From: a virus
Lineage: Duplodnaviria > Caudoviricetes
Virus record (IMG/VR): IMGVR_UViG_3300021963_000022
Reading direction: 5' to 3' (one strand)
Length of the DNA: 64,000 nt
In this document: positions 321-48,626 of the stretch, piece after piece
How the letters are laid out: every line of letters starts with the position of its first letter
Position numbering within the stretch: position 1 is the first letter of the stretch
Notes under the pieces: model-generated
What the model saw: the letters and a program-made list of their open reading frames with translations, nothing else
Told to the model about the DNA's origin: nothing
Databases searched by the model: none
Translations under genes and position numbers: made by a program

Positions 321-1094
321 ATGAGAGCATCAGAACTAGAAGAATCCGCCGCCGATGAGTTGAAACGTAAACTCCCAAGTCTTAACAAGACTGATTACTC
401 AACCATCGACCACTTAATGAAACGTATCAGTAAGCGTTTTAACATTAGTGGTAAAAAACTACATGACTTGTTCGTTAGCAAGTACGGTGAAACACCTGAT
501 CATTGGATTAAAAAATACAAAGATAAGTTAGATGAGGCACAACTTGCAGGAAATCCTATATATGTAATATATGTTGACGGTAAACCAGCAACAAAATATG
601 TTGATTCTAATGAAGCAAAACAAGACCTTCAATTACTAAAAAACAAGTTTCCTAATAAAACTTTTGTAATAAAACAACAAAATGATACGACTCCAGGTGG
701 TACTAATCTTATAGGTGAAGGTGTTGAATCGTCTGACGATGAACAAAAGATTAAAGATTTTATTGAATGGTCTTATAAAAAAGTAAACTTACAAAAGCCT
801 TATCCCAAGTTTACATTCAGTAGAAATACAGAAGAAGCACAAGAAGGTCATCACACCGGTCGTCATACGCACGACGGTGAAAACAGTCAAATATGGGTGT
901 ATATTGAGAATCGAAATCTAGTAGATATATTCAGAACTATATTCCATGAGATTGTACATGAAAGACAAATGCAACTTAATATGATTGGTCCTGATGATAG
1001 TTATCCAGGAAGTCCCGTTGAAGCAATGGCTGACATGATGGCTGGCAAATATATCAAAATCTACGGTAAAGAGCATCCTGAGATATTCCAATGA
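321..1094 (+). CDS. Putative virion internal protein with C-terminal HExxH metallopeptidase-like domain
   Basis: N-terminal MRASELEE leader; FHEIVHERQ followed by EAMAD. Confidence 0.55.
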   Translation: MRASELEESAADELKRKLPSLNKTDYSTIDHLMKRISKRFNISGKKLHDLFVSKYGETPDHWIKKYKDKLDEAQLAGNPIYVIYVDGKPATKYVDSNEAKQDLQLLKNKFPNKTFVIKQQNDTTPGGTNLIGEGVESSDDEQKIKDFIEWSYKKVNLQKPYPKFTFSRNTEEAQEGHHTGRHTHDGENSQIWVYIENRNLVDIFRTIFHEIVHERQMQLNMIGPDDSYPGSPVEAMADMMAGKYIKIYGKEHPEIFQ

Positions 1095-2365
1095 GAGCTA
1101 GAGAGTTTTTAATAGAATATAACAGAAACACCATGGTAAAAATGATGGGTAAGCAATTACTCAAATCATTTGCTCAGGGTAATGATATTAGATTAGCAAA
1201 TCAACCTCAATTCAGAACACCCGAGAATACATATGATACTAATAAAATGGTTGACTTTGTATTAGCAACATTAGAACAAGCTGACCCTACAACAAACAAA
1301 ATATATACTCCATGGTTAGCACGTGAGTATGTTAAAACTAATATAAAAAGATTAGAAGATGCATCAGCACACGCAACTCCTGCACTATCATTATACGATA
1401 CTTATAAAAGAAGCGGTGCGTTCCCTAGTGAATACAAAGATATCATGCGTATCACGTATAATCAATTGCTTACTTTTATCAGATCATATGATGCACCACC
1501 TACAGAGTTAAAAGATAAGGGTCGATCAACACAAGTTTATAGTGATAGTGAAGTACGTGTTATTGTACCAGAAGATCAAACTGCCGCATGTTATTATGGT
1601 CAAGGAACTCGTTGGTGTACAGCGGCTACTAGGGGTACTAACTATTTCAATCAATACTCACGTCAGGGTAAATTGTATATATTGCTTCCAACTAATCCAA
1701 GAGATGAAGGTGAAAAGTATCAATTACATTTTGAATCAGATCAGTTTATGGATAAAGAAGATGACCCAGTAGATATTGGTTGGTTATTAAGAACTCGTTT
1801 CCCTAGTCTACTTCCATTCTTTTTAAAAAATGAACCTGAATTAAAAACGTTTGTTGTTTTTAGTGACAATGCTATATTAGAAAAGGTCGGTAAACAGATA
1901 CATGACTTTGCTATGGACCGTGTAAATGAAATTATGATGGATTGGGAAACTGATGATGAAAGTTTTCGTGATTGGCAAACAGAACAAGCAATTAACAAAG
2001 GTTATGTTGATGCAGAAGGTAATATAGATTGGGATTTAGTACATGACGATGATTCCATTAACAACTATAGTGATTACAACTATGAAGTTAAAGACTTCTA
2101 CAAACAAATGGATAGAGCATTAAGCGTCAGTCCTGCTGAAATGCGTGATATGGCAGCAGGTGTAGAACAATACCTGGATAATGGTCCACTTAAAATTACT
2201 GAGTTAGATAGTATATACGAAACTGAGCTTGAAGAAACTTTTGGAAAAACAAGGGGCGGTGGTAGTAATGACTATGGTATAGGTGATTGGATAATGGAAC
2301 ACCTACAAGTTCAAAAAGATGGAACGGTCAAATTCTGGCCTGGATCTAAACATACACAAAGTTAA
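1091..2365 (+). CDS. Putative virion internal protein, PcfJ-like central domain (tentative)
   Basis: MRAREFLIE leader; AACYYGQGTRWCTA motif; ATGA overlap with the upstream gene. Confidence 0.45.
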   Translation: MRAREFLIEYNRNTMVKMMGKQLLKSFAQGNDIRLANQPQFRTPENTYDTNKMVDFVLATLEQADPTTNKIYTPWLAREYVKTNIKRLEDASAHATPALSLYDTYKRSGAFPSEYKDIMRITYNQLLTFIRSYDAPPTELKDKGRSTQVYSDSEVRVIVPEDQTAACYYGQGTRWCTAATRGTNYFNQYSRQGKLYILLPTNPRDEGEKYQLHFESDQFMDKEDDPVDIGWLLRTRFPSLLPFFLKNEPELKTFVVFSDNAILEKVGKQIHDFAMDRVNEIMMDWETDDESFRDWQTEQAINKGYVDAEGNIDWDLVHDDDSINNYSDYNYEVKDFYKQMDRALSVSPAEMRDMAAGVEQYLDNGPLKITELDSIYETELEETFGKTRGGGSNDYGIGDWIMEHLQVQKDGTVKFWPGSKHTQS

Positions 2366-2390
2366 TCGGGTAATATTCCTTGCAAAATAG

Positions 2391-2419
2391 TTGACTTTCT
2401 TGCACTGTGCATGTATACT
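2391..2419 (+). promoter_or_regulatory. sigma70-type promoter
   Basis: TTGACT-17 nt-TATACT upstream of the dsbA-like and polymerase genes. Confidence 0.7.
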
Positions 2420-2441
2420 AACTACTTCACAAGGAGAAACT

Positions 2442-5422: not shown

Positions 5423-5429
5423 ACTGGTA

Positions 5430-11599: not shown

Positions 11600-11611
11600 T
11601 AAATACTTGTG
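11594..11611 (+). promoter_or_regulatory. Late promoter motif within an 18-bp sequence repeated at 32106-32123
   Basis: AAGTGATAAATACTTGTG is identical at both sites. Confidence 0.6.
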
Positions 11612-11665
11612 TTACACAACGGTAACACAATGTCAAAACAAAACCATCACAAAGGAAGGTTATCT

Positions 11666-12352
11666 ATGAGTTATAATAAAACAAAAACAGATCCAGAGTT
11701 GGGTCAAAAAGTTCATCTACATCTATTAAATATGGGCGTAGAAACGCCAATTGACGATACAATTGATTTAGGTGATCGTAAGGATCGTATTGAAAAGATT
11801 GAAGGTCATTTCAAAGCTATTATGGAAACAATGGGTCTAGACCTAGATGATGATAGTCTTATTGAAACACCTAAACGTGTTGCCAAGATGTATGTAAATG
11901 AAATCTTTTGGGGACTTGATTATGAGGCATTCCCTAAATGTACAACAGTTAACAACAAGATGCAATACAACGAAATGGTTGTAGAGCGTAATGTTAATGT
12001 TCAATCTAACTGCGAACATCACTTTGTAGTGATTGATGGATTGGCTACTGTAGCTTATGTCCCTAAACAAAAAGTATTAGGGCTTAGTAAGATCAACCGT
12101 ATTGTAGAATATTTTAGCAAAAGGCCTCAAATACAAGAGAGGTTAACAGAGCAGATATTTCACACCTTACAGTTCATCCTTGAGACAGAAGATGTTGCAG
12201 TTATGATTGATGCACAACATTATTGTGTAAAATCACGTGGGGTAGAAGATACAGGTAGTAGTACTGTTACTTGTCGCCTAGGTGGAGGCTTTAAAACTGA
12301 TCCAGCGGCAAGACAAGAGTTCTTACAGATTGCTAATAAAGGTTGCAAATGA
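11666..12352 (+). CDS. folE: GTP cyclohydrolase I
   Basis: [38 protein letters not shown]; start after SD GGAAGG. Confidence 0.95.
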
Positions 12353-12540
12353 AATTTAAATTAGGTGATATGGTTAAAAAAGTGTCTGGTTCAGAATGGC
12401 ACGGTAAAGTAGTGGGTACATATTCAACTGAGTTAACGCCTGAAGGATATGCAGTTGAGAGTCATACAGAAAAAGGGTCTGTGCAAATATACCCCGCTAA
12501 GGCTCTTGAACTTTGGGAGATTAATAATGGGAATGCGTAA
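12349..12540 (+). CDS. R67/DfrB-type (type II, SH3-fold) dihydrofolate reductase homolog
   Basis: [33 protein letters not shown]...GSVQIYP closely follows the R67 core; ATGA overlap with folE. Confidence 0.85.
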
Positions 12541-12763
12541 ACAAATGGACTACAATAGTGTGCATCATCAAATCTATATGAGTGGTGTAGAACTTCATAG
12601 TAATTACAATGATGGATACAACCAGTTTGAAATCAAAAAAGATTTACATCGTATTAAATGGTTACTTGATGAGATTATGGCTGACGCACCTACATTTACA
12701 GGTGAAGATGAATTCTTAAAAGAACACGAACAAACCAAGATGTGGAGAACACTTTCAAAATGA
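12527..12763 (+). CDS. Hypothetical protein
   Basis: ORF track; start refined to ATG 12527. Confidence 0.55.
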
Positions 12764-13233
12764 TTTTTAATCACATTAAAGAACTAAAAGCACAAGGTAA
12801 AAAGATTGGCATTACTTTCAGTACATTTGATTTGCTTCACGCAGGTCACGTTGCTATGTTAAGTGAGGCGAAGAATCATTGCGATTATTTAATTTGTGGC
12901 TTGCAAACTGATCCAACCATTGATCGTCCTGATACAAAGAATAAACCCATTCAAAGTATTGTAGAACGACAGATCCAACTTGCGGCTTGTCGCTATGTTG
13001 ATGAGGTAGTTGTATATCAAACTGAACAGGACCTTATTGACCTACTACTTATTCTTCCCTTAGATGTTCGCATTTTGGGTGTAGAATATGCTGAAAAAGA
13101 GTTTACCGGAAGATATGAAGGTGGGGAACGAGGTATTGAACTTGTATTCAATGGTCGTGACCATAGTTTCAGTAGTTCAAGTTTAAGAAAACGGGTAGCT
13201 GATGCCCAGATTATTAACACTCTTAATAAATAA
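12760..13233 (+). CDS. Cytidylyltransferase-family nucleotidyltransferase (TagD/RfaE-like)
   Basis: TFDLLHAGH (HxGH) and RDHSFSSSSLR. Confidence 0.85.
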   Translation: MIFNHIKELKAQGKKIGITFSTFDLLHAGHVAMLSEAKNHCDYLICGLQTDPTIDRPDTKNKPIQSIVERQIQLAACRYVDEVVVYQTEQDLIDLLLILPLDVRILGVEYAEKEFTGRYEGGERGIELVFNGRDHSFSSSSLRKRVADAQIINTLNK

Positions 13234-13236
13234 CTA

Positions 13237-13302
13237 TAGCGGTCTTTGGACATCATCCCGCTTTACAAATTCTGCTGCCTATGCTATAATACAACATAGG
13301 AG
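13237..13302 (+). promoter_or_regulatory. Structured leader of queD: preQ1-I-riboswitch-like stem plus SD-sequestering hairpin, overlapping an extended -10 sigma70 promoter
   Basis: AGCGG 13238-42 / CCGCT 13258-62; CCTATG 13278-83 / CATAGG 13295-300; TTTACA 13262-67, 17 nt, TGnTATAAT. Confidence 0.5.
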
Positions 13303-13308
13303 AAATTC

Positions 13309-13791
13309 ATGGCAAACAAAAAATTCTTTTCAACAAAAACATACAGACAAATAGGTCCTGTCGCTTATCGTCAATGGCGTGCTGACAGTCATTGTAACTT
13401 AATTCATGGCTACGCTATGAGTTTTCACTTTGAGTTTGAAGCTGATACACTAGATGCCCGCAACTGGGTAACTGACTTCGGTGGACTACGACCTCTCAAA
13501 GACAAACTAGAAGAATGGTTTGACCATACTCTACTAGTCGCACAAGATGACCCAATGCGTGAACATCTATTAGAACTAGGTCGATTGAAGCTAGCAAAGA
13601 TTACAGAAGTAGAACGTACTGGCTGTGAAGGTATTGCTGACTTCTTATACGAATATGTTAATACAATCTTTTTACCTAACTGCGGTAGTGAAGAAGCAAA
13701 GCGTGTATGGTGCTGTAGAGTAGAGGTTCGTGAGACTGATAGCAATATGGCAGGTAGAGGTGGTCATAGAGAAGATGGGGAGTTTGCATAA
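13309..13791 (+). CDS. queD: 6-carboxy-5,6,7,8-tetrahydropterin synthase
   Basis: HCNLIHGY, DFGGL, FDHTLL, TGCEGIA, VEVRET. Confidence 0.9.
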   Translation: MANKKFFSTKTYRQIGPVAYRQWRADSHCNLIHGYAMSFHFEFEADTLDARNWVTDFGGLRPLKDKLEEWFDHTLLVAQDDPMREHLLELGRLKLAKITEVERTGCEGIADFLYEYVNTIFLPNCGSEEAKRVWCCRVEVRETDSNMAGRGGHREDGEFA

Positions 13792-14222
13792 TGTTTAGTG
13801 TAATTAAATTCTTTTGGTTAGTGAGTCGTTCATCCTGGAACATCATGAACCCCAATCTAAATCCGTTGCGACATGCACCTGTATATATCAAATATTTTCT
13901 TAGCATCCTACTGGGGTGTTTTTGGAGCCTAGCATTTGGAATCTACATTGGTGAACTGTTAACAATTGGCTACAATATGCTAGGTCACATTGCCATCATC
14001 AGCATGGTATTTGCTACTTGGGCTGTATTTCGTTCAGTAGAAAATACTTATGGTCCACGTGGTGGTACAGTAGATTGGTTACGCATGCCAGACTATAGTA
14101 GTCGGTGTGATGAACTTACTGAAGATCAGCGTTTTGCTAAAATCCAAGAATGGAACAATCGGAATGTTTGGAACGAACCTAAACATTCTGAAAAAGATAA
14201 AGAAACTTATTACGGAGCATAA
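13791..14222 (+). CDS. Hypothetical membrane protein
   Basis: Two hydrophobic segments; TAATG overlap with queD. Confidence 0.55.
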   Translation: MFSVIKFFWLVSRSSWNIMNPNLNPLRHAPVYIKYFLSILLGCFWSLAFGIYIGELLTIGYNMLGHIAIISMVFATWAVFRSVENTYGPRGGTVDWLRMPDYSSRCDELTEDQRFAKIQEWNNRNVWNEPKHSEKDKETYYGA

Positions 14223-14224
14223 AC

Positions 14225-14326
14225 GTGACCATTAATGAAATTATTGCTATAGTACTAATGGTAGCCGTAGTGGGCATAGTGCTATGGGATATGAACAGGA
14301 ACAAAGAAAATAAACCAAAGGAATAA
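14225..14326 (+). CDS. Small single-pass membrane protein (33 aa), below the ORF-track cutoff
   Basis: GTG start after GGAG; IIAIVLMVAVVGIVLW followed by a basic tail. Confidence 0.4.
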   Translation: MTINEIIAIVLMVAVVGIVLWDMNRNKENKPKE

Positions 14327-14361
14327 AGAATTCTACGCAGAGAATTTTAAAAGGAAAATAA

Positions 14362-15012
14362 ATGTTAGAAACAATTTGCGATACATTAGTTGAAGCATAT
14401 AGACGCAACTGGATTACTAGTCGTGATGGCAATGTAAGTATTCGTCATCACGACCGTGATCACTTTTACATCACTCCTAGTGGTGTCCGTAAGCAGACAA
14501 TGCAACCTGATCAGTTTAAAAAGATTGGCATTGAACAAGGCTACTATGACCAACCTCCTAAACCATACTATTCTTGGAAAGAACTGGCATATACAGACAT
14601 TAGTGAGAAGCTAAAACCTAGCGGAGAAATACCACTGCACTTCGGCTTACAACGAGAAATGGGGCAACACAGTGATGATGTAAGAGTTGTAGTTCATTTA
14701 CACCCTACTTATTGTATTGCGGCAATGCACGCCGGTATTGATTTAAGCACTATTAGCAAAGCGTTTCCAGAATTGAATCGCTACACTAAGGTAGCACCCA
14801 ATGTAGGAGACGTGCCTCCGATTAGTCAAGAGCTTGCAGACCAGTGCCATAAGATGTTACAATTAGACAATAAAGGCAATATTGTTTACGACATTGTAGG
14901 TATCAAAGGACACGGAGTTGTTGCTATAGATACAAGTCCATGGCGTGCTTTTGAACACATTGAACGATTAGAACATATTTGTCAAATCGTATTAGCATCA
15001 AATAAATTTTAA
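14362..15012 (+). CDS. Class II aldolase/adducin family protein
   Basis: SRDGNVS, ITPSG, PSGEIPLH, HLHPTY, GHGV. Confidence 0.88.
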   Translation: MLETICDTLVEAYRRNWITSRDGNVSIRHHDRDHFYITPSGVRKQTMQPDQFKKIGIEQGYYDQPPKPYYSWKELAYTDISEKLKPSGEIPLHFGLQREMGQHSDDVRVVVHLHPTYCIAAMHAGIDLSTISKAFPELNRYTKVAPNVGDVPPISQELADQCHKMLQLDNKGNIVYDIVGIKGHGVVAIDTSPWRAFEHIERLEHICQIVLASNKF

Positions 15013-15022
15013 GGAGAAAACT

Positions 15023-15712
15023 ATGTTTGAAACAACTTATGAAAATGGAACGTCATATCGTTCCGCAAGCGAAATCAATTCAGCAATGGGTCGTGTCTAT
15101 GGACATATGAGTCTTGCTGTTATTGTATCAATGTTTGTTAGTTACTTTGTAGGCACTAGTCCAGAGTTATTGGCATTCTTTTTTACAGGCTGGATTAAAT
15201 GGATTGTAATATTATCACCACTTGCGGCTATCTTTGGTGTTGCTATGGTACTAGCCAATAACCCAAGTAAAAGTGTAGCACAACTATGCTTACATGGTTT
15301 TGCGGCATTAATGGGATTGAGCTTTGCTACAATCTTTGCTGTATTCACTATGGGTAGTATTGTGTCAGCGTTTATGGGAGCCTCGATACTTTTTGGTGTA
15401 ATGAGTGGATATGGCTACTTTACCAAACAGAGTTTAGACAATGTTGGTAAGTTTATGTTTGTCGGCCTAATTGCTATCATTATTGCTAGTATTGTTAATA
15501 TCTTTATTGGTAGTACAGTTATGCAAATGGTTATCAGTGCATTAGCTATTATTATCTTTTTAGGACTAACTGCTTATGACACACAAAAGATCCGTGAAGA
15601 ACTTAGTATGGAAACTAGTGATAGTGCAGAAGTGCGAGGTGCATTAACATTATATATGGACTTCATTAACTTGTTTATTAACCTATTACAACTGTTTGGT
15701 GATAGAAAATAA
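15023..15712 (+). CDS. Bax inhibitor-1/YccA family membrane protein
   Basis: Multiple transmembrane helices; TAYDTQKI and ALTLYMDFINLF. Confidence 0.88.
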   Translation: MFETTYENGTSYRSASEINSAMGRVYGHMSLAVIVSMFVSYFVGTSPELLAFFFTGWIKWIVILSPLAAIFGVAMVLANNPSKSVAQLCLHGFAALMGLSFATIFAVFTMGSIVSAFMGASILFGVMSGYGYFTKQSLDNVGKFMFVGLIAIIIASIVNIFIGSTVMQMVISALAIIIFLGLTAYDTQKIREELSMETSDSAEVRGALTLYMDFINLFINLLQLFGDRK

Positions 15713-15722
15713 TTAACAAAAC

Positions 15723-15914
15723 ATGAACAGTTTGGAAAAAATCTGGTCTAGAGCAACAGGTCATCTAATGGGTAATACTGATGATGACCGACCCGATGTA
15801 CCTATTCTTACATTACGGGAAGCAAAAATTGCATTGTTCCTAAAGACTTTCTGGGTGGTACTACATGTGATAACATGTTGTTTTATTATAGCAAATACTT
15901 TACATCATTGGTAA
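15723..15914 (+). CDS. Hypothetical small membrane protein
   Basis: ORF track; hydrophobic C-terminus. Confidence 0.55.
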   Translation: MNSLEKIWSRATGHLMGNTDDDRPDVPILTLREAKIALFLKTFWVVLHVITCCFIIANTLHHW

Positions 15915-15917
15915 TAT

Positions 15918-16124
15918 ATGAACAAAAAAATCAAAGAACTAGCAGAACAATGCGGTTTTAGACCAGGTGATAGCATATACGATAGAAATCAATCATTTGA
16001 TATTGAGAAGTTTGCAGAACTTCTAATCAGAGATTGTGCAAAGCAAGTTAATCACATTTACAAACAAGGTGGCGGCACATGGGGTGAAGTCATTCTTAAA
16101 ACTTACAATATAAAAATCAAATGA
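15918..16124 (+). CDS. Hypothetical protein, KFAxLIxxC paralog family
   Basis: DIEKFAELLIRDC. Confidence 0.6.
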   Translation: MNKKIKELAEQCGFRPGDSIYDRNQSFDIEKFAELLIRDCAKQVNHIYKQGGGTWGEVILKTYNIKIK

Positions 16125-16969
16125 GTCATTTAAAAGTAGCAGAATTATTTTATAGCATTCAAGGTGAAGGTAGATACATGGGTGTACCTTCAGTATTTCT
16201 CAGAACATTTGGCTGTAACTTCAAGTGTGCTGGATTTGGTATGCCTAAAGGTGAACTAAGTCGTGAGGTAGAAGACATTGCCGCACGTTCACATTACTAT
16301 GATGATTATAAGAAACTTCCTTTAGTTTCTACAGGTTGTGACAGTTATGCAAGTTGGGATCCTAGATTTAAACATCTTAGTCCTGTACTAACAACAGATA
16401 GTATTGTAGATAGCATTATGGATATGATTCCGCACAAACGTTGGATGGATGAGCATCTTGTTATTACAGGCGGTGAACCTTTATTAGGTTGGCAACGTGC
16501 TTATCCTGACTTGCTTTCACATGAAAAGATGAGGAGTCTTAAAGAGATTACATTTGAAACAAATGGTACTCAAGAACTAAGCCAAGACTTTTCAATATAT
16601 CTACAACAGTGGAAGATAAACAGAGAAAAAAATGCACTTACCTTTAGTGTAAGTCCTAAACTAAGCATCAGTGGTGAGAAGTGGGAAGAAGCTATTCGCC
16701 CTGAGATTATTCATCAATATGAAAGTGTTGGCTTTGTTTATCTCAAGTTTGTTATTGCTACTAAAGAGGATGCACTTGAAGCTGATGACGCAGTAAAAGA
16801 GTTTCGTAGTAGAGGATTCAGAGGTCCTGTATACTTTATGCCATGCGGTGGTGTAGAGTCTGTGTACAACTTGAATGCAAAGAATGTAGCAATTGAAGCA
16901 ATGAATCGTGGTTATCGTTACAGTGATAGACTACAAGTACCTTTATTTAAGAATGAGTGGGGTACATGA
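16121..16969 (+). CDS. queE: 7-carboxy-7-deazaguanine synthase (radical SAM)
   Basis: ELFYSIQGEG, FLRTFGCNFKC...GCDS, ITGGEP, ETNGT, SVSPK. Confidence 0.9.
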   Translation: MSHLKVAELFYSIQGEGRYMGVPSVFLRTFGCNFKCAGFGMPKGELSREVEDIAARSHYYDDYKKLPLVSTGCDSYASWDPRFKHLSPVLTTDSIVDSIMDMIPHKRWMDEHLVITGGEPLLGWQRAYPDLLSHEKMRSLKEITFETNGTQELSQDFSIYLQQWKINREKNALTFSVSPKLSISGEKWEEAIRPEIIHQYESVGFVYLKFVIATKEDALEADDAVKEFRSRGFRGPVYFMPCGGVESVYNLNAKNVAIEAMNRGYRYSDRLQVPLFKNEWGT

Positions 16970-19088: not shown

Positions 19089-19930
19089 AAAAAGTTTTAA
19101 TTACAGGTAGTTCAGGATATATCGGTTCACATCTATGTAAGATGCTAGCCGGTAAATACGAAGTTCATGGACTTGATATTAATCCACCACAAACATTTGT
19201 AGATAAATTCTATGACCAAAACATCAATCGACTATTTGAAGCTGAACACGAATATGATGCAGTAATTCATTTGGCTGCATTGGTTCGTGTAGGTGAGAGT
19301 GAACTTATGCCAATCAAGTATTATATTACTAACTTGAATGGTACTATGAACATACTTAATCGTGTGAAAACAAAAAACTTTATCTTTGCTAGTACTGGTG
19401 CCGCACAAGATTGTACTAGTGCCTATGGTATCAGTAAACTTGCCGCTGAAGGTGTTGTTAAAGAATTCTCTACTCACCATCGTCAACAAGATTATACTAT
19501 TTTTAGATTCTATAATGTTGTAGGCAGTGATGGGTTTCCACCAACAAACCCAGATGGATTAATGTATAAACTGTTTGAAGCGACCGACACAGGAGTATTT
19601 ACTATCTATGGTAATGACTATACAGAATCAACTGACGGTACATGTGTCAGAGACTATGTTCATGTGAATGAAATATGTGAAGCTTTGAAAGAAGCTATTG
19701 AAAACCCATCTAATCAAATAGAATGTTTAGGGCATGGTGTTGGTCATACAGTTAAAGAGATTGTTAATAAGTTTCAACAAGTTAATAATGTTGATTTTGA
19801 AGTGACGTACGGCCCAAGAAGAAAGGGTGACTTACCTAGTTCTGTACTAGAAAATGTATCACCCTATATGCGTAATCTCTATACAATGGATCAGTTACTT
19901 ACCTTTAGCGTCCCGGAAAAAACTGAGTAA
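19085..19930 (+). CDS. NAD-dependent NDP-sugar epimerase/dehydratase (GalE-like)
   Basis: LITGSSGYIGSH, YGISK (YxxxK), RFYNVVG, RDYVHV. Confidence 0.9.
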   Translation: MKKVLITGSSGYIGSHLCKMLAGKYEVHGLDINPPQTFVDKFYDQNINRLFEAEHEYDAVIHLAALVRVGESELMPIKYYITNLNGTMNILNRVKTKNFIFASTGAAQDCTSAYGISKLAAEGVVKEFSTHHRQQDYTIFRFYNVVGSDGFPPTNPDGLMYKLFEATDTGVFTIYGNDYTESTDGTCVRDYVHVNEICEALKEAIENPSNQIECLGHGVGHTVKEIVNKFQQVNNVDFEVTYGPRRKGDLPSSVLENVSPYMRNLYTMDQLLTFSVPEKTE

Positions 19931-21419
19931 AGAAATTACTATTAGCACCTGCATCGATGATAACAGGTTTACCTTGATATAATCCCCAGTTTGCTTTTCT
20001 ATTAAGATCACCTAACTCAACCTCATATGATGAACTTAAATCAACCAACTTGTTTGCGTATTCATTAGCAGTGTCAATCTGTTCTTCTGACTTGCCTTTC
20101 TTCTTCATATGAGCAATCAATTGTTGATAATTATATAGTTTACTCTTACCAGACATTGCAGTAGCCAATTGAACTATTTCATTTAATGAATCAACACCCA
20201 TCAGTTCAGCAAGTTGTTTCTCAGTAGCTTTTTGTGCTAACTCAGTGTGTATCCAAGTAGGTTCACGATTCTGTTTATCATAGTCAATCATAGGTATTAG
20301 TATACCAAGCTGACTAGCATATCCATCATCCAGTATATCTACTTCTACATTGTTTTGTACTAAACCCATTCTATTTTTAGCTATTTTAAGAACAGTAGGA
20401 CGACCTTCATATTCAATATCAGTAGCAATACGACTAGATCCACTACCAATACGTTTAGCACGTTCTAATGCATAACCTAGTCGTTGTTTGAATGTAGAGC
20501 CAGGGCTATATTGACTTGCATCCCAATCAGCTGGTAAGGGTGCTTCAGTTATTTCATTGTTCGTTTTTACGATAGGAGGAACCCAGTTGTATAGTTCTAT
20601 TCGTGGTGCACCGGATTCATCGTGATAATAATTCGCTTTAAACGAACCATCATATTTAATAACGTTTTGAATTTCTTTTGGATTGCCACCTGTTAATCTC
20701 TTAAATGCATCTATTGCTTTTTGTTTTGTTAAGCCAACTTTAGTGTCACCGGTATCACCAATCGGCAAGATTAAGCCATCAGGTGTAACACTCCATAATG
20801 TATATCCATCTGGATTGTCTCTCCTTGCTACTATTTGAACTTCATTTGGCTTATAGTAATTTTTAGAATTCAATGGTGGTTTAGCTAACTTACGTGAGAA
20901 CGTGCCTTTATTAGTAGGATCATCTCTCATTGTAGTTAATTCTAAACCACTATCATTAATCAATTTCAATAGACCTTCTGGTACTTTATTCATTAGTTCT
21001 TTACGTATCTGTATGCCTAAAACATATGGTTTCTTAACAGGGATACCTATACCTCTTGGATGATAGATACGTTCTTCTGTTTCTTGTTTATACATTGGAT
21101 TACTAGCAGTAGGACCAGTACCGTCTGCTTGATTATAGAATTGCATATAAGAGAATGGCATTACTTTGAATCCAGCTTGACGTAATGCATTCCTATCTAA
21201 CACAAGTTGAATACTGCCACCACCATATGGGAATCTATAATATTGATTTCTACTTGCACTGATTACTGGTATTTCCCAACCACCTTCTTCATCTGTATCA
21301 GATAAGTGCGGTTGTATTACACCTTTTCTGAGTATATTCCAGATTTGATTAGGTTGTGCTACACTATGATAAATGTAATCGCCACCAACTGCTTCAGCAA
21401 TAAATTCTTTTGCTCTCAT
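19905..21419 (-). CDS. Putative virion protein: N-terminal ART-like domain fused to a C-terminal protein-kinase-like domain
   Basis: MRAKEFIAE leader; YIYH..ISASR..ETEE; IGSGSSR, VLK, NVE, GDL..NWG, IDAG. Confidence 0.6.
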   Translation of the reverse strand: MRAKEFIAEAVGGDYIYHSVAQPNQIWNILRKGVIQPHLSDTDEEGGWEIPVISASRNQYYRFPYGGGSIQLVLDRNALRQAGFKVMPFSYMQFYNQADGTGPTASNPMYKQETEERIYHPRGIGIPVKKPYVLGIQIRKELMNKVPEGLLKLINDSGLELTTMRDDPTNKGTFSRKLAKPPLNSKNYYKPNEVQIVARRDNPDGYTLWSVTPDGLILPIGDTGDTKVGLTKQKAIDAFKRLTGGNPKEIQNVIKYDGSFKANYYHDESGAPRIELYNWVPPIVKTNNEITEAPLPADWDASQYSPGSTFKQRLGYALERAKRIGSGSSRIATDIEYEGRPTVLKIAKNRMGLVQNNVEVDILDDGYASQLGILIPMIDYDKQNREPTWIHTELAQKATEKQLAELMGVDSLNEIVQLATAMSGKSKLYNYQQLIAHMKKKGKSEEQIDTANEYANKLVDLSSSYEVELGDLNRKANWGLYQGKPVIIDAGANSNFFTQFFPGR

Positions 21420-21901
21420 TTTCTATTTAGTAAATAAGGACTGTTAAGTAATTTTGGAAACCAAGGAACATCTTCATAGTCTTTTAATATATTTCTTCTG
21501 TTTGGATTAAAATAGAAACCCTTTATCTTACCACGAACTGGCATAGAACCTTTAGGTACAACAATTACTTCTTCATATTCATCACCAAATGTTTGTGTAC
21601 CTTGACTAGAACTAAACATTTTATATTGATTAGCAATAGAAGGTCTATCCAATACAAGAATTACTGCATTACCATCATATGTTAGATTTAAATTATCAAT
21701 AAATTCATCTGATTCAGCATAATGCCTCGAACGAGTTGTACTAATTGTGGGAGCATTGGTTCTTGCTATAGTTGCTTGTTGAGGACGATAGCTTGCTTTT
21801 AATAAGCCCTTGTCTAGTATATGCAACATTGCCGCTGGTTGCGTAGCATGATAAAGATAATCATTACCCACTGCTTCTACTATGAACTCACTTGCTCTCA
21901 T
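21416..21901 (-). CDS. Putative virion protein, stand-alone ART-like domain
   Basis: MRASEFIVE leader; YLYHAT, ISTTRS, EYEE; paralogous to the N-terminus of the next gene. Confidence 0.55.
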   Translation of the reverse strand: MRASEFIVEAVGNDYLYHATQPAAMLHILDKGLLKASYRPQQATIARTNAPTISTTRSRHYAESDEFIDNLNLTYDGNAVILVLDRPSIANQYKMFSSSQGTQTFGDEYEEVIVVPKGSMPVRGKIKGFYFNPNRRNILKDYEDVPWFPKLLNSPYLLNRK

Positions 21902-24654: not shown

Positions 24655-24662
24655 TATTTATC
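24655..24662 (-). promoter_or_regulatory. Late promoter motif GATAAATA for the minus-strand virion-protein operon
   Basis: TATTTATC on the + strand, 55 nt upstream of the start at 24599. Confidence 0.5.
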
Positions 24663-38537: not shown

Positions 38538-39379
38538 TACGACATGATTGGACACAACCATTACCAAAATCTGAGATTTTAGATTTGTCCAATAATGTAT
38601 GCTATGATAAGTTTTTAGACAGAAACGTTGAACATAGCGTATCTACCTATCCGGATGATGCAGAAGCATATAGATTGTTATCTCAATACTATAGTATTTC
38701 TCCTTATAACATAGCTATAGGTTATGGGTCATCTGATATAATACTACGTATCTTAAAATTATATCAAGGTAACTCTTTAAAGATTGTTAGCCCAACTTGG
38801 CAACTGGCTCAACTATATGCACATCATATAGGGTATGAGATTAAAGATGATGCAGATATTTTATACATAGCAAACCCTAACGGCTTGACCGGTAAAGCCT
38901 TATCTAAAAATGAAATCTTGTCCCTATTACCCACTTACAAGTTAGTCATAGTAGATGAAGCCTATTGTGATTTTAGTGATTGCTCTGTACTGGATACTTC
39001 TATTACTGCTGACAATTTAATTGTAGTGAAAACACTAAGCAAAACGATAGCATCTCCTGGATTAAGATTTGGATACTGCTTTTCTAATTCAGATATAATT
39101 AATAGAATACAAAACGTAAGACCAGGCTATGTAACTACAAATGCTACTATACCTGCTCTTAACAAACTGTTACCTCAAATAGGTATGCATATTAGTCGTA
39201 TGTTAGAAACTAGAAACTACATTGAGGATAAGTATGATGTAGTACCTTCTGAAGGAAATTATGTATTGTTTAAAACTAGATATAGTTTACCTGTTAAGAT
39301 GAAGGAAGTTAACGAGTTGTTTAGAATGTCGTTAACTGATATTGATACATTCAAGAAATTCGAAAATGAACTCAGATGA
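38534..39379 (+). CDS. PLP-dependent aminotransferase class I/II (HisC/CobD-like)
   Basis: IANPNGLTG, IVDEAY, KTLSK..ASPGLRFGY. Confidence 0.88.
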   Translation: MIRHDWTQPLPKSEILDLSNNVCYDKFLDRNVEHSVSTYPDDAEAYRLLSQYYSISPYNIAIGYGSSDIILRILKLYQGNSLKIVSPTWQLAQLYAHHIGYEIKDDADILYIANPNGLTGKALSKNEILSLLPTYKLVIVDEAYCDFSDCSVLDTSITADNLIVVKTLSKTIASPGLRFGYCFSNSDIINRIQNVRPGYVTTNATIPALNKLLPQIGMHISRMLETRNYIEDKYDVVPSEGNYVLFKTRYSLPVKMKEVNELFRMSLTDIDTFKKFENELR

Positions 39380-40169
39380 GTTAAGACGCCTGCAAGAACA
39401 GGGTGCGGTTGATTTATATTCTGCATTACGTAGTGTAGAAATCAATCCTACGGAACTATGTAACAGAGCCTGTTCCTTCTGTCCTCGAGTTGATCCTAAT
39501 ATCTACAAGAATCAGAAAAAACATATTGATCCCGATCTATGTACACTATTAGGTGAGCAGTTATCAACATTTGGGTTTGATGGCAGGATAGGCTTTGTGG
39601 GTTTTGGTGAACCATTGTTACATCCTAATATAGCAGAATGTGTGCGTAATATCAAACAATCATGCCCAACAGCTAAATGGATAGAGATTAATACAAACGG
39701 TGATTTGTTAACTAGAGACATTGCTATTGATCTTGCTAATGCAGGATGTACTACTATAACAGTTAGTATGTATGACACAGATGCTACTACTTATTTTATT
39801 GAAATGTTAGATGGTGTAAAGATAGAGCTAGTGTTAAAACATCAATATGATATTGCTAACATAAAAATAATTAATAGGATAGATATCATACAACAGACCA
39901 AGGTACTAAACATATCTCGTCCTTGTTACATCCCGTTTTATAAAATATTTGTTGATTGGAATGGAGATTACTTACTATGCCAACAAGATTGGGGCAAAAC
40001 TACCAATGTGTATAACATAAAGAATACCCCGGTCATTGACTATTGGTTATCCAAATTGACTGAGTATAGAACGAATCTATCAATGGGTAATAGGATACAA
40101 AATCCATGTGACAAATGTGACATTGACGGGACTGTATATGGGAAATCTAGTTTTGATTTGTTCGTATAA
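39366..40169 (+). CDS. Radical SAM/SPASM(twitch) domain protein
   Basis: CNRACSFC, GFGEPLLHP, INTNG, C..PF...WNGDYLLC, PCDKC. Confidence 0.9.
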   Translation: MNSDELRRLQEQGAVDLYSALRSVEINPTELCNRACSFCPRVDPNIYKNQKKHIDPDLCTLLGEQLSTFGFDGRIGFVGFGEPLLHPNIAECVRNIKQSCPTAKWIEINTNGDLLTRDIAIDLANAGCTTITVSMYDTDATTYFIEMLDGVKIELVLKHQYDIANIKIINRIDIIQQTKVLNISRPCYIPFYKIFVDWNGDYLLCQQDWGKTTNVYNIKNTPVIDYWLSKLTEYRTNLSMGNRIQNPCDKCDIDGTVYGKSSFDLFV

Positions 40170-42085: not shown

Positions 42086-42094
42086 GATAAATAC
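42086..42094 (+). promoter_or_regulatory. Late promoter motif GATAAATAC
   Basis: 4 nt before the ATG at 42099. Confidence 0.5.
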
Positions 42095-42098
42095 TAGG

Positions 42099-43589
42099 AT
42101 GTATAAAAAATATTTGTCCCTATCTTCCCTAACACTGTTAGTAGCACTAGCATTAAGTACAGTAGCAGCCTACTATAGTATTATTGGTTTAACTGCTATC
42201 TTTGCTGGTGCGGTTATTCCTGTTATTATAATGGGAGGTATACTAGAAATAGGCAAGATTACTACTACGGTATGGTTACGAAAATATTGGAATCGTTGTG
42301 GCTTCCTACTTAAACTCTATCTTGTACCTGCTGTTATTGCATTAGCATTACTTACTAGCATGGGTATATTTGGCTTCCTAAGTAAAGCACATATGGATCA
42401 AGGAATTACAACAGGGGATATACAAGCCAAAATTGCAATCTACGATGAGAAGATTAAAGTATCACAGGACACTATAGATGTTAATCGCAAAGCACTTAAA
42501 CAACTTGATGAGGCAGTGGACCAAGTTATGGGCCGCTCGACTTCAGAAGCGGGTGCAGATAAAGCCGTTGCTATACGCAAAACTCAAGCAAAGGAAAGGA
42601 CTAGACTCCTTACGGAAATTGCGTCCGAACAGAAAACAATTACTAGAATACGAGAAGAACGAGCGCCCATTGCGGCTGAAGTACGCAAGGTCGAAGCGGA
42701 AGTTGGCCCTATCAAATACATTGCCGCATTGATTTACGGAGACAATGCCGACAATAATATGTTAGAGTCGGCCGTACGTTGGGTTATTATTTTACTTGTA
42801 ATTGTATTTGACCCACTTGCTATCGCTTTAGTATTAGCTGCCAATGCAAGTAGAGAATGGGATAAAGAGGAGGGTGACAGCCCTCTAGGGACCGAAACAC
42901 CAACGACTCCCACTGTCACTGAACCAGCATATGAGCCTGATGATGGGCCTTTAACAGAAGAACAAATTGAAGAAATACAAGATTCTGCGGAACCACCTAT
43001 AGGCGAGGTAGTAACTAAAGACGAATTGTTTCCTGAAGAATCTGTCTTAGACAAACATCCTTACCTAGCCAAACCGTTTGTTCATTTTGAAAATCTAGAA
43101 CCTATTGTAGGAAAAAAAGAACCTGAACCAAAGAAATTTGACATAGATAATATAACAGTTGATTCTACTGAGATAATTGTTGCTACTATAAAAGAACCTG
43201 ATATTGTGACAACTGAATATTCAGTTACAGGAGATTACATCGAAGTTGAAGGTAAACAGATGCACAAAAGGATAGCAGGAGACTTATATCCCGACATGTT
43301 AAAAATTGTAGTAGATGGTGAGAATTCAATTAGTGTTAATTTTGGTACTGCATTCCCTAAATATGCAAAGCGAGGTGACCTGTTTACCCGTGTAGATTCA
43401 TTACCAAATCGTGTATACAAATTTGACGGATCACGTTGGTTAGAAGTTAACAAAGAAAATAGCATATCATATCTGACACAAACTAAGTATGTTGAATATC
43501 TTATCAACAAAATTGCAACAGGTGAATATGATCCTGAGTTATTAACTGACGCAGAAAATCAAGCCATCACAGAATTCATAAAAAAATAA
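42099..43589 (+). CDS. Membrane protein with periplasmic coiled coil and acidic tail
   Basis: Three N-terminal hydrophobic helices, a coiled coil, a fourth helix (IVFDPLAI), then a Pro/Glu-rich region. Confidence 0.7.
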   Translation: MYKKYLSLSSLTLLVALALSTVAAYYSIIGLTAIFAGAVIPVIIMGGILEIGKITTTVWLRKYWNRCGFLLKLYLVPAVIALALLTSMGIFGFLSKAHMDQGITTGDIQAKIAIYDEKIKVSQDTIDVNRKALKQLDEAVDQVMGRSTSEAGADKAVAIRKTQAKERTRLLTEIASEQKTITRIREERAPIAAEVRKVEAEVGPIKYIAALIYGDNADNNMLESAVRWVIILLVIVFDPLAIALVLAANASREWDKEEGDSPLGTETPTTPTVTEPAYEPDDGPLTEEQIEEIQDSAEPPIGEVVTKDELFPEESVLDKHPYLAKPFVHFENLEPIVGKKEPEPKKFDIDNITVDSTEIIVATIKEPDIVTTEYSVTGDYIEVEGKQMHKRIAGDLYPDMLKIVVDGENSISVNFGTAFPKYAKRGDLFTRVDSLPNRVYKFDGSRWLEVNKENSISYLTQTKYVEYLINKIATGEYDPELLTDAENQAITEFIKK

Positions 43590-43632: not shown

Positions 43633-44832
43633 ATGACAGAAGAAACCAAATTAAAACATTGTAGCTTTTGCGGCAACAGTAAAGAAGCAGTTAAAAAATT
43701 AGTTGTAGGTGAGAATGTAGCTATATGTAGTGATTGTGTAGAGCTATGTCAAGACCTTATTGCTGATGAAGTAGGCGACACCAAAGAAGAATTACAACCC
43801 GAATATGATGCTGAAACTATTAAAAAGTTTTTAGATGAGCATGTTATTGGGCAAGATTCAGCTAAGATGGTTATGAGTGTTGCTATTGCAAATCACTATA
43901 AACGTATTACTAATCCTCCAAAGAACTTAGAGATTCAAAAGGGAAATGTTCTTATAGTAGGACCTACGGGTTCAGGTAAAACATTATTAGCTAAAACAGC
44001 TGCCAAGTATCTAAACGTCCCTTTCATAGTAGCTGACGCAACTAGCTTAACAGAAGCAGGTTATGTCGGTGATGATGTAGAATCAATGATTAGTATGCTA
44101 TTGAATGCCGCCGGTGGTGACAAAGACTTAGCAGAACGTGGAATCGTATTTGTTGATGAAATTGACAAGATTGCACGTAAGGGTGAAAGTACTAGTATTA
44201 CCCGTGACGTATCCGGAGAGGGAGTTCAACAAGCATTACTAAAGTTAGTTGAAGGTACTGTATGTCGTATTCCTAATAGTGGTGGAAGAAAACATCCTGG
44301 ATCTGATATGTCTGAGATTAATACTAAAAATATCTTATTCATTGCAGGTGGTGCGTTTGTTGGATTAAAAGAACTTATCACCAATCGTGTTAATGGTACA
44401 AGCATTGGATTTAATGCTAGTGTTAAAGACACTAGAATTGAAGGTGACATGCGTGATGTTCGCCCGGATGATTTAACTAAATTTGGTATGATTCCTGAAT
44501 TTATTGGACGTTTTACTACTACTGTCAGCATTGACAATCTTAATAAAGAACAATTAATAAGGGTCTTAACTGACGTTAAGAACAATTACATTAGCCAATA
44601 TAAATATCTATTTGAGTTAGATAATATTACACTAGAATTTACTGACAATGCGTTGGATCAAATTGCAGAAAACACTATCTCTCTTAAAACAGGGGCACGT
44701 GGACTTCATACTGAGATTGAAAGAGTATTGATGCCACATATGTTTAAAGTAAGAACGTATGCTAAAAACGGGATTAAAACACTAAATATAGATAGAGTTG
44801 ATGTAATTACACCAAAACCATTGTATGAGTAA
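43633..44832 (+). CDS. clpX: ATP-dependent Clp protease ATP-binding subunit
   Basis: CSFCG/CSDC zinc finger, GPTGSGKT, RDVSGEGVQQALLK, IGF loop, TGARGL. Confidence 0.95.
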   Translation: MTEETKLKHCSFCGNSKEAVKKLVVGENVAICSDCVELCQDLIADEVGDTKEELQPEYDAETIKKFLDEHVIGQDSAKMVMSVAIANHYKRITNPPKNLEIQKGNVLIVGPTGSGKTLLAKTAAKYLNVPFIVADATSLTEAGYVGDDVESMISMLLNAAGGDKDLAERGIVFVDEIDKIARKGESTSITRDVSGEGVQQALLKLVEGTVCRIPNSGGRKHPGSDMSEINTKNILFIAGGAFVGLKELITNRVNGTSIGFNASVKDTRIEGDMRDVRPDDLTKFGMIPEFIGRFTTTVSIDNLNKEQLIRVLTDVKNNYISQYKYLFELDNITLEFTDNALDQIAENTISLKTGARGLHTEIERVLMPHMFKVRTYAKNGIKTLNIDRVDVITPKPLYE

Positions 44833-45588: not shown

Positions 45589-45612
45589 TATAATAGTGTT
45601 TCGTTAAATAAA

Positions 45613-45636: not shown

Positions 45637-45653
45637 ACTTCAAGGTATAAATC

Positions 45654-46651: not shown

Positions 46652-46659
46652 GCAGTTTA

Positions 46660-46998
46660 TTACTGGGTAGCTTTTGGTGCTTTGGGTTTTGCTGGGGCTT
46701 TTTTAGCAACAGCTGGGGCTTTTGGCTTTGCTGGGGCTTTTGGCTTTGCTGGGGCTTTTGGCTTTTTAGATATCGGTGCTTGCTCAACTACCCCTGCAGG
46801 TACTACAGCTTCTGGAACAACTACAACGGTTTCAACAGCTGGTGCAGAATTGACAACCAAAGGAATTGGTGTAGTAGCTGCCGGCTCCGGTACTTTGTAC
46901 GGGGCTGACACGTTTGCCTCAGTTGTTTCTACAGGTTTGGCTTCAGGAACACCAAATAATTTTTTCAAAAAGTTTAACATAATTTTCTCCTTATACAT
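46660..46998 (-). CDS. Low-complexity protein with C-terminal KPKAPA repeats (H1-like tail)
   Basis: KKPKAPAKPKAPAKPKAPA. Confidence 0.6.
   Translation of the reverse strand: MYKEKIMLNFLKKLFGVPEAKPVETTEANVSAPYKVPEPAATTPIPLVVNSAPAVETVVVVPEAVVPAGVVEQAPISKKPKAPAKPKAPAKPKAPAVAKKAPAKPKAPKATQ
46683..46760 (-). repeat. 18-bp tandem coding repeat (TTTGGCTTTGCTGGGGCT-like) encoding KPKAPA
   Basis: Visible near-perfect tandem copies. Confidence 0.8.
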
Positions 46999-47054
46999 CT
47001 ATTTACTCTAGGAAAACCATAAAGATAAAATTTATAATCATAAATACAAGTACT

Positions 47055-47546
47055 ATGTTTCACGGATCACCTACTCTAAAAGAACTAATGGCTTTGCCAT
47101 TACCCACTATGCGTGAGCAAAAACGTCTAATGTTTAGGCCCTCACAATGGCAAGTTTCACACGTTTATACACTGATAAACGATAATGTTTTTCATAATAT
47201 GTTAAAAAAACCGGAACTCATACTAAAATCAAGATGTAGAAAATATTGGGGAATGTGTATAGGATCACATGACAAGTTAAAAAACGGTAGTTATTGTAAG
47301 ATTGAACTTATGGACAAGTGGATTAGTCCACAATGGATGATAGCTACATTGGCACATGAAATGGTTCATCAATATCAATGGGATATAGCAGGGCCTGAAC
47401 GTGAGGCAGAGGGATTAAATGCTATTATGAGTCATGGTCCAAGTTTCTTTCAGTTTCGTGATTTATTAAAAGAACACAATATCCCATTAAAAACGGCGCA
47501 TTCTCAGCGCCGTTGGTATAAGCATCAAAGCTTGTTCAAATGCTAA
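47055..47546 (+). CDS. SprT-like zinc metalloprotease
   Basis: TLAHEMVHQ and HGPSF. Confidence 0.82.
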   Translation: MFHGSPTLKELMALPLPTMREQKRLMFRPSQWQVSHVYTLINDNVFHNMLKKPELILKSRCRKYWGMCIGSHDKLKNGSYCKIELMDKWISPQWMIATLAHEMVHQYQWDIAGPEREAEGLNAIMSHGPSFFQFRDLLKEHNIPLKTAHSQRRWYKHQSLFKC

Positions 47547-48626
47547 TTACTTTTTGATATTAGGATTGTCTACTACATTCCCGTTAACATCAACAAGAAT
47601 AACATCTTTAGTACCCTTCTTACCGATAGCACGATTCAATACAGATGCCATTGGTCTGATACCTCGAATACCCAAAGCCTTACTTAAACGACCTTTGTTA
47701 TTACGTAATAACCAAACCATCATGTGACTTGTAGGGATATCTTCTTTACGAGTAATAACAGCATGACATTCAATACTAATGTTGTTCTCCACCTGATGAT
47801 AATGTTTAGGCTCAAAGTCTTGGATAACAATGCCACCATGAGGATTAATGTCACTACCAAAAATAGCACTCATTGCTTCTTCTTCAGTAGGTTCAATAAC
47901 AATCTCTTTACTTAGGAAATAACTTTTACCGTCAGGTTGTAATATAAGTTTAACTACTTTATCTTTTACTAATTTATCAATTATTTCACGTGCTTTGGCC
48001 CCAAACAATGAATCAGCAGATTCCCATGTTTCAGCACTTAGTTCTTTGATAGATACAGGTAATCTGCTCTTAGAGCTAGCTAATACAATATCTGCTTTCT
48101 TACGTTCAGCAACGTCAGAACCAGTTGGATATACTTGGTCAACGTTCTTAATTGTCATTGTTTTTCCACGTGGGTCTTTAAAAGTAACATTGATTAGTCC
48201 ATACTTCTCAACCATACTTGCTAAGTATGAAGCAATTTCAGCTTCATTGCCTACACCAGCACTCTTTTCACCCTGTTGACCTGCATCTTTAATAATAACT
48301 TGTACAGGGCTACCGTCACCAAAAACGACACCACCTAAGCTACTCTTGGCCGCTGCCGAATACTCTGGACCTGCATCTGGTAAATACTTTTTCAATATAG
48401 CCAAAACATCTTGTAGCAACGATGACCTAAACTCACCCTTTTTAGCACCGTCTGGTATCTGTGTAACTACGCCGATTACATTACCATTAGGTTTTAAGTC
48501 TTCATACCCTGCTTGACGTAATACTTGTTCAACCTGTGCCTTTGTAACGGGCGATGGTTCTTGCGAGTTCACTACTGTCGGGGCTTTTGCTTCAACCAAA
48601 GTGTTTGCAAATTCAATGTATCTCAT
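47547..48626 (-). CDS. Putative virion protein with PD-(D/E)xK restriction-endonuclease-like domain
   Basis: MRYIEF..LVE leader; GNEAE...KADIVL...VSIK. Confidence 0.55.
   Translation of the reverse strand: MRYIEFANTLVEAKAPTVVNSQEPSPVTKAQVEQVLRQAGYEDLKPNGNVIGVVTQIPDGAKKGEFRSSLLQDVLAILKKYLPDAGPEYSAAAKSSLGGVVFGDGSPVQVIIKDAGQQGEKSAGVGNEAEIASYLASMVEKYGLINVTFKDPRGKTMTIKNVDQVYPTGSDVAERKKADIVLASSKSRLPVSIKELSAETWESADSLFGAKAREIIDKLVKDKVVKLILQPDGKSYFLSKEIVIEPTEEEAMSAIFGSDINPHGGIVIQDFEPKHYHQVENNISIECHAVITRKEDIPTSHMMVWLLRNNKGRLSKALGIRGIRPMASVLNRAIGKKGTKDVILVDVNGNVVDNPNIKK

Follow-up and report, generated by a model that had tools for sequence, protein, structure and literature searches.

A T4-like N-terminal tag and glutamate joints suggest head-packaged enzymatic polyproteins in an uncultured jumbo phage

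Seven Genes with a Common Leader

The analysis covers a stretch of 64,000 nucleotides (nt; 64 kb), given as one strand, of the Caudoviricetes virus record IMGVR_UViG_3300021963_000022; this stretch is hereafter the window. Seven genes of the window, arranged in three units, encode proteins (numbered 1 to 7) that begin with similar short peptides, referred to here as the tag, and continue into unrelated cargo that includes ADP-ribosyltransferase (ART)-like and kinase-like modules. An initial annotation had likened these leaders to the capsid-targeting sequence of phage T4 and had read the seven as late genes for head-packaged polyproteins that deliver enzymes at infection. All seven N-termini on which that reading was built are present (Table 1). 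The start of gene 5 at 23649 lies inside a longer open reading frame (21901-23724) and was accepted because four orthologues start there, with MNF[TK]ELFE, right after the upstream stop.

The G+C content of the window is 33-44% (per 2-kb window), coding is dense and the plus strand predominates. Its family-B DNA polymerase shares 43-49% identity with the enzymes of Phosso, XaC1, RaK2, K64-1 and Atu_ph07, all of them jumbo myoviruses. We place the window in the RaK2/XacN1-like branch of the T4 superfamily, as part of a freshwater jumbo myovirus that is uncultured. A search for near-identical DNA in cultured phages returned none close at the DNA level. In IMG/VR, relatives carry protein 3 orthologues that are 75-91% identical, and they include a complete 352-kb genome, which is named G001 here.

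Table 1. Tagged genes, joints and promoter-like elements of the window. A slash within a motif marks the position of a predicted cut.
Feature	Position	Strand	Remarks
GATAAATA, late-promoter-like motif	306-313	+	Ends 7 nt before the ATG at 321
Protein 1 leader, MRASELEE	321-344	+	
Protein 1 body	345-1094	+	N-module (residues 9-72) matches phrog_10346; C-module with HExxH
Protein 1 junction, LDE/A	536/537	+	End of N-module
Protein 2 leader, MRAREFLIE	1091-1117	+	
Protein 2 body	1118-2365	+	Conserved GTRWCTA core, residues ~39-228
Protein 3, C-part	19905-20543	-	Kinase-like module starting APLPADWD
Protein 3, N-part	20544-21419	-	Leader MRAKEFIAE (21393-21419), then ART-like module ending ...EITE (Glu292)
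Protein 4	21416-21901	-	Leader MRASEFIVE (21875-21901), then predicted minimal ART-fold domain
Protein 5	21901-23649	-	Leader MNFQELFE (23626-23649), variable N-modules, LDE/A, GP88 module
Protein 5 junction, LDE/A	22962 (next residue)	-	
Protein 6	23646-24599	-	Leader MKFTEIITE (24573-24599), basic module matching phrog_16028
Protein 6, later parts			QGVAE/G (next residue 24377), middle module, IDE/D (next residue 23978), basic DUF6321 module
GATAAATA	24655-24662	-	Precedes the four-gene minus-strand unit by 55 nt
Protein 7	47547-48626	-	Leader MRYIEFANTLVE (48591-48626), variable linker, core matching phrog_12709
GATAAATA	48677-48684	-	Upstream of gene 7; overlaps the -35 of the sigma-70-like promoter
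Sigma-70-like promoter, TTGCGA-N18-TG-TATAAT	48688-48659	-	Upstream of gene 7

A Portable Peptide

The strict pattern M[RKN]xxE[FLIMV]x(1-3)E, written from the description in the initial annotation, was scanned in six frames over ATG codons followed by 15 open codons. It matches 6 of the 1,169 open ATGs in the window, all of them true gene starts, and none of the other 1,163, while the expectation from composition is 0.36 over all open ATGs and 0.03 over the 105 gene starts. The shared leader thus stands in its strict form for six of the seven genes, whereas the seventh, MRYIEFANTLVE, answers to a looser pattern only. Orthologues of protein 7 down to 50% identity keep MRYxEFxxxL[VA]E, and the residues after it diverge. 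In G001, a nine-residue register fits just 9 of the 478 called genes, including those of the strict-pattern scan.

The tags end in IAE, IVE, LIE, LEE, LFE, ITE and LVE, that is, in the (I/L)-x-Glu motif that is cleaved by gp21. Their consensus reads M-R-A-x-E-F-I-T-E; Glu occupies positions 5 and 9 in 84-99% of the sequences, and position 9 in 98-99% of homologues. The strict tag starts 104 of the 120 best homologues of the kinase-like module (588 were found), with the module coming next or after another one, such as GNAT. For the family of protein 4, a full profile search was used after a word index had yielded only 8 homologues, and the profile of the ART-like module reaches 1,259 representatives of 50%-identity clusters. 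Among the best 148 of these, 75 begin with the strict tag and 94 with a loose one; the rest are often fragments or carry the domain internally. In an alignment of 50 ART-like sequences with a mean identity of 24%, the two glutamates E5 and E9 are among eleven near-invariant columns. In the structure model of protein 4, leader residues 1-11 have a predicted local distance difference test (pLDDT) score below 50 and lie outside the fold.

Paralogues and relatives vary within the tag by synonymous codons (GAA/GAG, TTT/TTC, GCA/GCT). Because the codons vary in this way while the amino acids are kept across homologues, the tag is, by this comparison, selected as a peptide, and it is a portable one. 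A Shine-Dalgarno-like word precedes 1 of the 7 tagged genes in the window and 1 of the 9 in G001, against 170 of the 425 other G001 genes. The tag might alternatively be a shared 5' recombination cassette, or a translation-start context, that has no sorting role and is kept by gene conversion among paralogues; where a Shine-Dalgarno sequence is missing, the first codons might indeed matter for initiation. This account deserves next to no credence, as it has to contend with the synonymous variation inside the tag, with the conservation of the amino acids in 50%-identity cluster representatives and in distant phage groups, and with the protease-type site at the tag's end.

The tag is also met in cultured phages. 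In the Alishewanella phage Slicko01 (locus L002, 56-3609), five tandem genes start with the tag variant MKIxxLYESLLEE; three of them are ART-like and one belongs to the kinase-like family, which indicates that the tag system is present in this 141-kb cultured myovirus too. ORF170 of XacN1, like Slicko01, has its own tag variant directly before the kinase-like domain.

Joints between Modules

The junctions EITEA, LDEA, VAEG and IDED, cited in the initial annotation as candidate cleavage sites, are present in the proteins. In orthologues, modules are added, dropped or swapped exactly at ITE/A, LAE/A, LDE/A, VNE/A, IDE/D and VAE/G. In particular, orthologues of protein 3 either end after ...NN or continue through ITE/A into the kinase-like module, and others pass through LAE/A or VSE/A into another kind of module. 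In orthologues of protein 5, LDE/A or VNE/A links the tag module with GP88, and there are zero, one or two inserts; those of protein 6 have differing middles that are joined to DUF6321 at IDE/D, VAE/G or MAE/D. For the kinase-like domain, the best 120 of its 588 homologues were compared: P1, just before the domain, is Glu in 119 of 120, and all 119 of these have I, L or V at P3. This (I/L/V)-x-Glu site is preceded by the tag in some homologues and by another module in others.

An internal twin-arginine (Tat) signal directly after a site of the same kind, written here as phi-x-E, is found in three tagged polyproteins from close relatives. At L003:6001-7527, LAE/AISRRDLLK... is followed by a Peptidase_M48 domain; at L003:4112-6001, an orthologue of protein 5, VNE/ADISRRGFLK... 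is found with GP88 further downstream (residues 347-518); and at 198995-199861 of G001 (equal to L005:9264-10130), VLE/DLTRRGFLG... precedes a GH19 domain. With three further internal cases from the wider family, all six sit 0-2 residues after phi-x-E, against a background of 14%. To function, a Tat signal must stand at a free N-terminus, and the modules that bear one are therefore probably released by a cut at the phi-x-E junction. This hints that some injected cargo may be re-exported to the host periplasm after cleavage.

Predicted Cargo

The initial annotation had named an ART-like domain among the cargo, and for protein 4 and the N-part of protein 3 such an assignment is supported at the level of the predicted fold. 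The model of protein 4 has a pLDDT of 85.5, and its top ~45 Foldseek matches in the PDB nearly all belong to the ART superfamily, led by Tpt1/KptA, DarT, cholera toxin A1 and PARPs (probability 0.9-1.0, E 4e-3 to 0.05, template modelling score about 0.4-0.5). The scores are modest, and the list of matches is uniform. In the alignment, the near-invariant residues of the family are Y17-H18, S54..R57 and E108-x-E110, which are candidates for a catalytic triad of the H-Y-E or R-S-E type. A tblastn search of cultured phages with the ART-like part of protein 3 gave no match.

The C-module of protein 3 is plausibly kinase-like. The layout of its motifs is good, with a Gly-rich loop, the beta3 Lys, the alphaC Glu, the catalytic D..N and a DFG-like D-x-G invariant in 43 sequences, but its fold matches are not significant: the model has a pLDDT of 69.6 with a weak N-lobe, Foldseek gives E values of 0.12 or worse (none at <=0.001) and VIA-align a best Z of 4.7, with most of the matches to kinases (Rio, Bud32 and others). 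An Atlas lead to Phage_T7_kinase is carried by 11% of one cluster.

The remaining proteins are assigned with unequal strength. Protein 5 carries GP88, as had been claimed, with 93.3 bits for the Pfam family (PF17338) against a cut-off of 24.4, and protein 6 carries DUF6321 (PF19846), with 43.2 bits against 28.5. In the pelagiphage Eistla, each of the two basic modules of protein 6 has a small gene of its own in the interval between scaffold and capsid genes, a context that favours the packaging reading. For the proposed peptidase, protein 1, the HExxH motif is indeed present, but Pfam (E <=0.1) and PDB sequence searches came back empty, so that the motif is a lead to a possible peptidase. The proposed nuclease, protein 7, fares similarly: language-model feature leads (Atlas, 0.86-0.87) to the HinP1I, HaeIII and MspI families weakly suggest a nuclease of the PD-(D/E)xK restriction-endonuclease-like type, but the Pfam search was empty. 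No MuF domain was found among the seven proteins by Pfam search. In relatives, tagged proteins also carry amidoligase, GH19 and M48 domains.

These contents bear on the most serious rival explanation, according to which the tag is a prohead-core propeptide and the proteins have no role beyond building the head or condensing the DNA; once cleaved, they would be expelled from the capsid or kept in it and would not act as effectors on the host. The T4 core proteins gp67, gp68 and gp22 are likewise cut by gp21 and mostly expelled (PMC9026906). Protein 6, which is largely made of basic, low-complexity modules, would fit such a role. ART-fold, kinase-like, GP88, amidoligase, GH19 and M48 cargo would, however, make little sense inside a capsid, some of the cargo carries Tat signals, and T4 offers in Alt the precedent of an injected ART. 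Even with the tag-like genes beside portal genes that are described below, this rival is unlikely.

Proposed Late Expression and the Head Machinery of Relatives

As first noted, GATAAATA precedes all three tagged units. It was also considered as a statistically enriched word in the window, which was rejected (6 copies found, 5.75 expected), and it was kept as a positional signal. All six copies in the window lie upstream of genes on the same strand, and three of these are the tagged units; ATAAATA is depleted (15 found, 32.6 expected). The complete genome G001 has 51 copies of GATAAATA, against 14-25 for the words with the other three first bases. Start codons mostly follow the copies at a distance of 15-29 nt or of just 3-7 nt. 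Ten genes behind the word were sampled, and seven of them can be recognised as encoding virion proteins (baseplate wedge, tail sheath, tail tube, head-tail adaptor, a tail-fibre-like protein and two structural proteins of the virion). The word also precedes each of the four tag clusters in G001; one copy is 56 nt before MRISEILTE, which matches the spacing of the four-gene minus-strand unit of the window (55 nt). From this association with virion genes in G001, we infer that GATAAATA is the late promoter of the lineage and the counterpart of TATAAATA in T4.

Two further features of these upstream regions were observed. The short-spaced class of GATAAATA (3-7 nt), seen at 306-321 and 42086-42099 in the window and genome-wide in G001, would produce late mRNAs with almost no leader or none at all. 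A conserved palindrome, GTGCTATAATTAGCAC, separates the start of gene 7 from the promoter-like site (48626-48700, minus strand); it contains the TG-TATAAT element and could be an operator or a hairpin in the 5' untranslated region.

The head module of G001 follows the T4 order: portal, a 74-aa protein, an acidic protein, Peptidase_S77, a scaffold-like protein and a gp23-type capsid protein. The gp21-type protease is recognised by PF03420 (E 8.8e-28) and the gp23-type protein by PF07068 (E 9.8e-100). The capsid protein has a candidate propeptide site, LAE/S, and the 74-aa protein starts MKLFEMFDQ. Five cultured phages, XacN1, Slicko01, PA5oct, Mendera and T4, were searched for the S77 protease, and all of them have it.

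This distribution matters for another alternative, in which the tag is recognised by a different machine, as a ClpXP degron, a substrate site for a radical-SAM/SPASM enzyme or a secretion signal. The window encodes ClpX, ClpP-like and radical-SAM/SPASM proteins. Among the phages checked, ClpX was present only in G001 and PA5oct, in contrast to the S77 protease, and a radical-SAM/SPASM homologue was found in none of G001, XacN1, Slicko01, PA5oct and T4, although an empty answer of this kind is weak. Moreover, a terminal degron or a radical-SAM tag would not explain the phi-x-E rule at internal junctions. The other-machine alternative as a whole merits little credence, and in its ClpX-degron and radical-SAM-maturase forms it is not supported, as the genes are missing from several tag-bearing phages.

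A link from the tagged proteins to the virion itself is given by the phage PA5oct. Its gp279 is 31% identical to residues 39-228 of protein 2 (over 210 aa, E 2e-22), starts MKLFEVFTLYE, adjoins the terminase gene and is annotated as 'structural protein, ESI-MS/MS', that is, as identified by electrospray ionization tandem mass spectrometry. A search for relatives of protein 2 in IMG/VR found none. Six annotated genes of PA5oct have tag-like starts, and three of their products, gp333 (encoded next to the portal gene), gp279 and gp104, are virion proteins by the same method. The tag-like starts of gp333 and of the 74-aa protein of G001, both at the gp67/68 position beside the portal gene, speak in turn for the head-assembly rival. 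The paper on the XacN1 virion proteome makes no mention of ORF170 and ORF171.

Other Genes of the Window

Apart from the tagged units, the window encodes a DNA ligase, a flap nuclease, ClpX, a ClpP-like protein, radical-SAM enzymes and a giant RCC1/FN3 protein. ClpX (43633-44832, plus strand) has a zinc finger and an AAA domain, the ClpP-like protein is encoded at 48709-49305 (plus strand), and the radical-SAM/SPASM protein at 39342-40169. A GTP cyclohydrolase I-like gene, a QueD-like gene and a QueE-like radical-SAM gene occupy 11609-16969 on the plus strand and suggest a 7-deazaguanine DNA-modification pathway; the first of them is preceded by its own GATAAATA at 11598. On the minus strand, 59629-63999 encodes a protein of >1,419 aa with FN3, RCC1-repeat, glycine-rich and Calx-beta domains, which runs off the window and is probably a fibre or an adhesin.

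Proposed Mechanism and Its Weight

Collectively, the tag, the joints, the head genes of relatives and the cargo can be brought together in one scheme. The first 8-12 residues of the seven cargo proteins would act like the capsid-targeting sequence of T4 and, by analogy, bring the cargo into the scaffolding core of the assembling prohead. There, a gp21-type prohead protease would cut after the Glu that ends the tag and also at the (I/L/V)-x-Glu joints, so that one polyprotein would give several products in the head: two ART-fold domains, a small kinase-like domain, GP88, basic DNA-binding-like modules of the DUF6321 type and others. These products would remain with the DNA and be ejected into the next host.

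Targeting together with processing is the best explanation as a whole and is judged probable. For targeting in this phage, the argument is one of analogy with T4, while head-protease cleavage at the tag and at the joints is predicted with strong comparative support. Ejection and host-directed roles are held with lower confidence than targeting plus processing. The core of the claim made in the initial annotation, that of head-packaged polyproteins, is favoured by the tag, the junctions, the head module of relatives and gp279 of PA5oct; its packaging, cleavage and ejection steps are things that we infer.

Several observations weigh against this scheme. The tagged genes sit among genes for replication and nucleotide metabolism, outside the head module, and the S77 protease and head module were seen in relatives only. 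The tagged genes mostly do without a Shine-Dalgarno sequence, unlike the ip genes of T4, which have strong ones, and at 321 the gap from the end of the promoter-like word to the ATG is only 7 nt. For gene 7, a sigma-70-like extended -10 promoter, conserved in four orthologous loci, overlaps the GATAAATA of the gene, and in Mendera and Vibrio phage D479 the homologues of its core bear no tag and lie among replication genes. The description of the seven genes as late thus agrees with the word upstream of all units but becomes uncertain for gene 7, because of that promoter and those untagged homologues. Triplets of the form [ILV]xE are common (1-8 sites per protein) and also occur inside folded domains, and the reading of the junctions therefore rests on comparison with relatives and not on the motif alone. 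Finally, going by the annotations of PA5oct, 3 of its 6 tag-like starts are positive by mass spectrometry against a background of 93 of 461 (20%), an enrichment that is suggestive and not significant (binomial p ~0.1).

Relation to Known Packaged Proteins

In T4, the capsid-targeting sequence and its use by diverse T-even internal proteins are established (PMC9026906, PMC3012670). For packaging, its first 10 residues are enough, and targeting and processing depend on those that align with F, I and E of the tag described here (PMC9026906). The T4 internal proteins IPII and IPIII do begin as the initial annotation had stated, reading MKTYQEFIAE/A in the T4 record NC_000866, and MRAKEFIAE/A of the window shares EFIAE/A with them. 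In both systems a tag of ~10 residues ending in (I/L)-x-Glu is followed by unrelated cargo, the tagged genes are scattered outside the head module, and relatives of the window have a head module of T4 order with S77. The T4 internal proteins, however, are small and basic, whereas the cargo described here is large, enzymatic and multi-module, with predicted cuts between modules. It also belongs to a distant jumbo branch, its genes mostly lack Shine-Dalgarno sequences, GATAAATA is its putative promoter word, and its packaging is a prediction.

The likeness to T4 Alt lies in an ART-fold enzyme with a short N-terminal propeptide that is removed by the head protease and in delivery with the DNA (PMC9026906, PMC9503650). 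Proteins 3 and 4 differ from Alt in that they are much smaller; the residues they conserve are Y-H, S..R and E-x-E, and in fold they come closest to Tpt1/KptA and DarT rather than to Alt/VIP2. No sequence relation of the two proteins to Alt was found.

Head-packaged ARTs and polyvalent effectors have been predicted earlier (PMC5512222, PMC9503650). The polyvalent proteins of Iyer et al. 2017 (PMC5512222) are similarly multi-domain, fast-shuffling and presumed virion-borne effectors with ARTs, peptidases and other enzymes, but they are thought to be freed by their own metallopeptidase domains or anchored via MuF/portal fusions, whereas a short N-terminal tag and head-protease junctions are proposed here for sorting and cutting. 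The head ejection proteins of phiKZ, 201phi2-1 and SPN3US are also processed after Glu, by a diverged relative of gp21 of the gp175/gp245 type (PMC9026906, PMC5694885); they differ by an S/A/G-x-E logo, long propeptides and the lack of a shared nine-residue N-terminal tag. A literature search returned no account of a near-T4 tag on multi-module enzymatic polyproteins with head-protease joints in the RaK2/XacN1-like branch.

Implications

In a wider reading, the tag and the (I/L/V)-x-Glu joints would define a lineage-wide 'capsid polyprotein' system, in which in-frame exchange at protease sites shuffles the modules; these would be cut apart within the prohead and injected as an effector kit predictable from sequence, some of them with Tat signals that become functional only after cleavage and lead to the periplasm. 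This reading is tentative, and is to be entertained rather than expected. If the proposed scheme is true, a nine-residue peptide would reveal, from sequence, the proteins that uncultured freshwater jumbo phages deliver, an 'injectome' that is otherwise invisible without culture. The three-protein paradigm of T4 would be extended to enzymatic polyproteins cut inside the capsid, and the fast in-frame shuffling of modules in this genome would be tied to protease sites. The minimal ART and the minimal kinase, whose homologues number from hundreds to thousands in either case, would be candidate enzymes for host take-over or counter-defence, and the internal Tat signals suggest that some of the cargo may follow a previously unreported route from the capsid through the cytoplasm to the periplasm.

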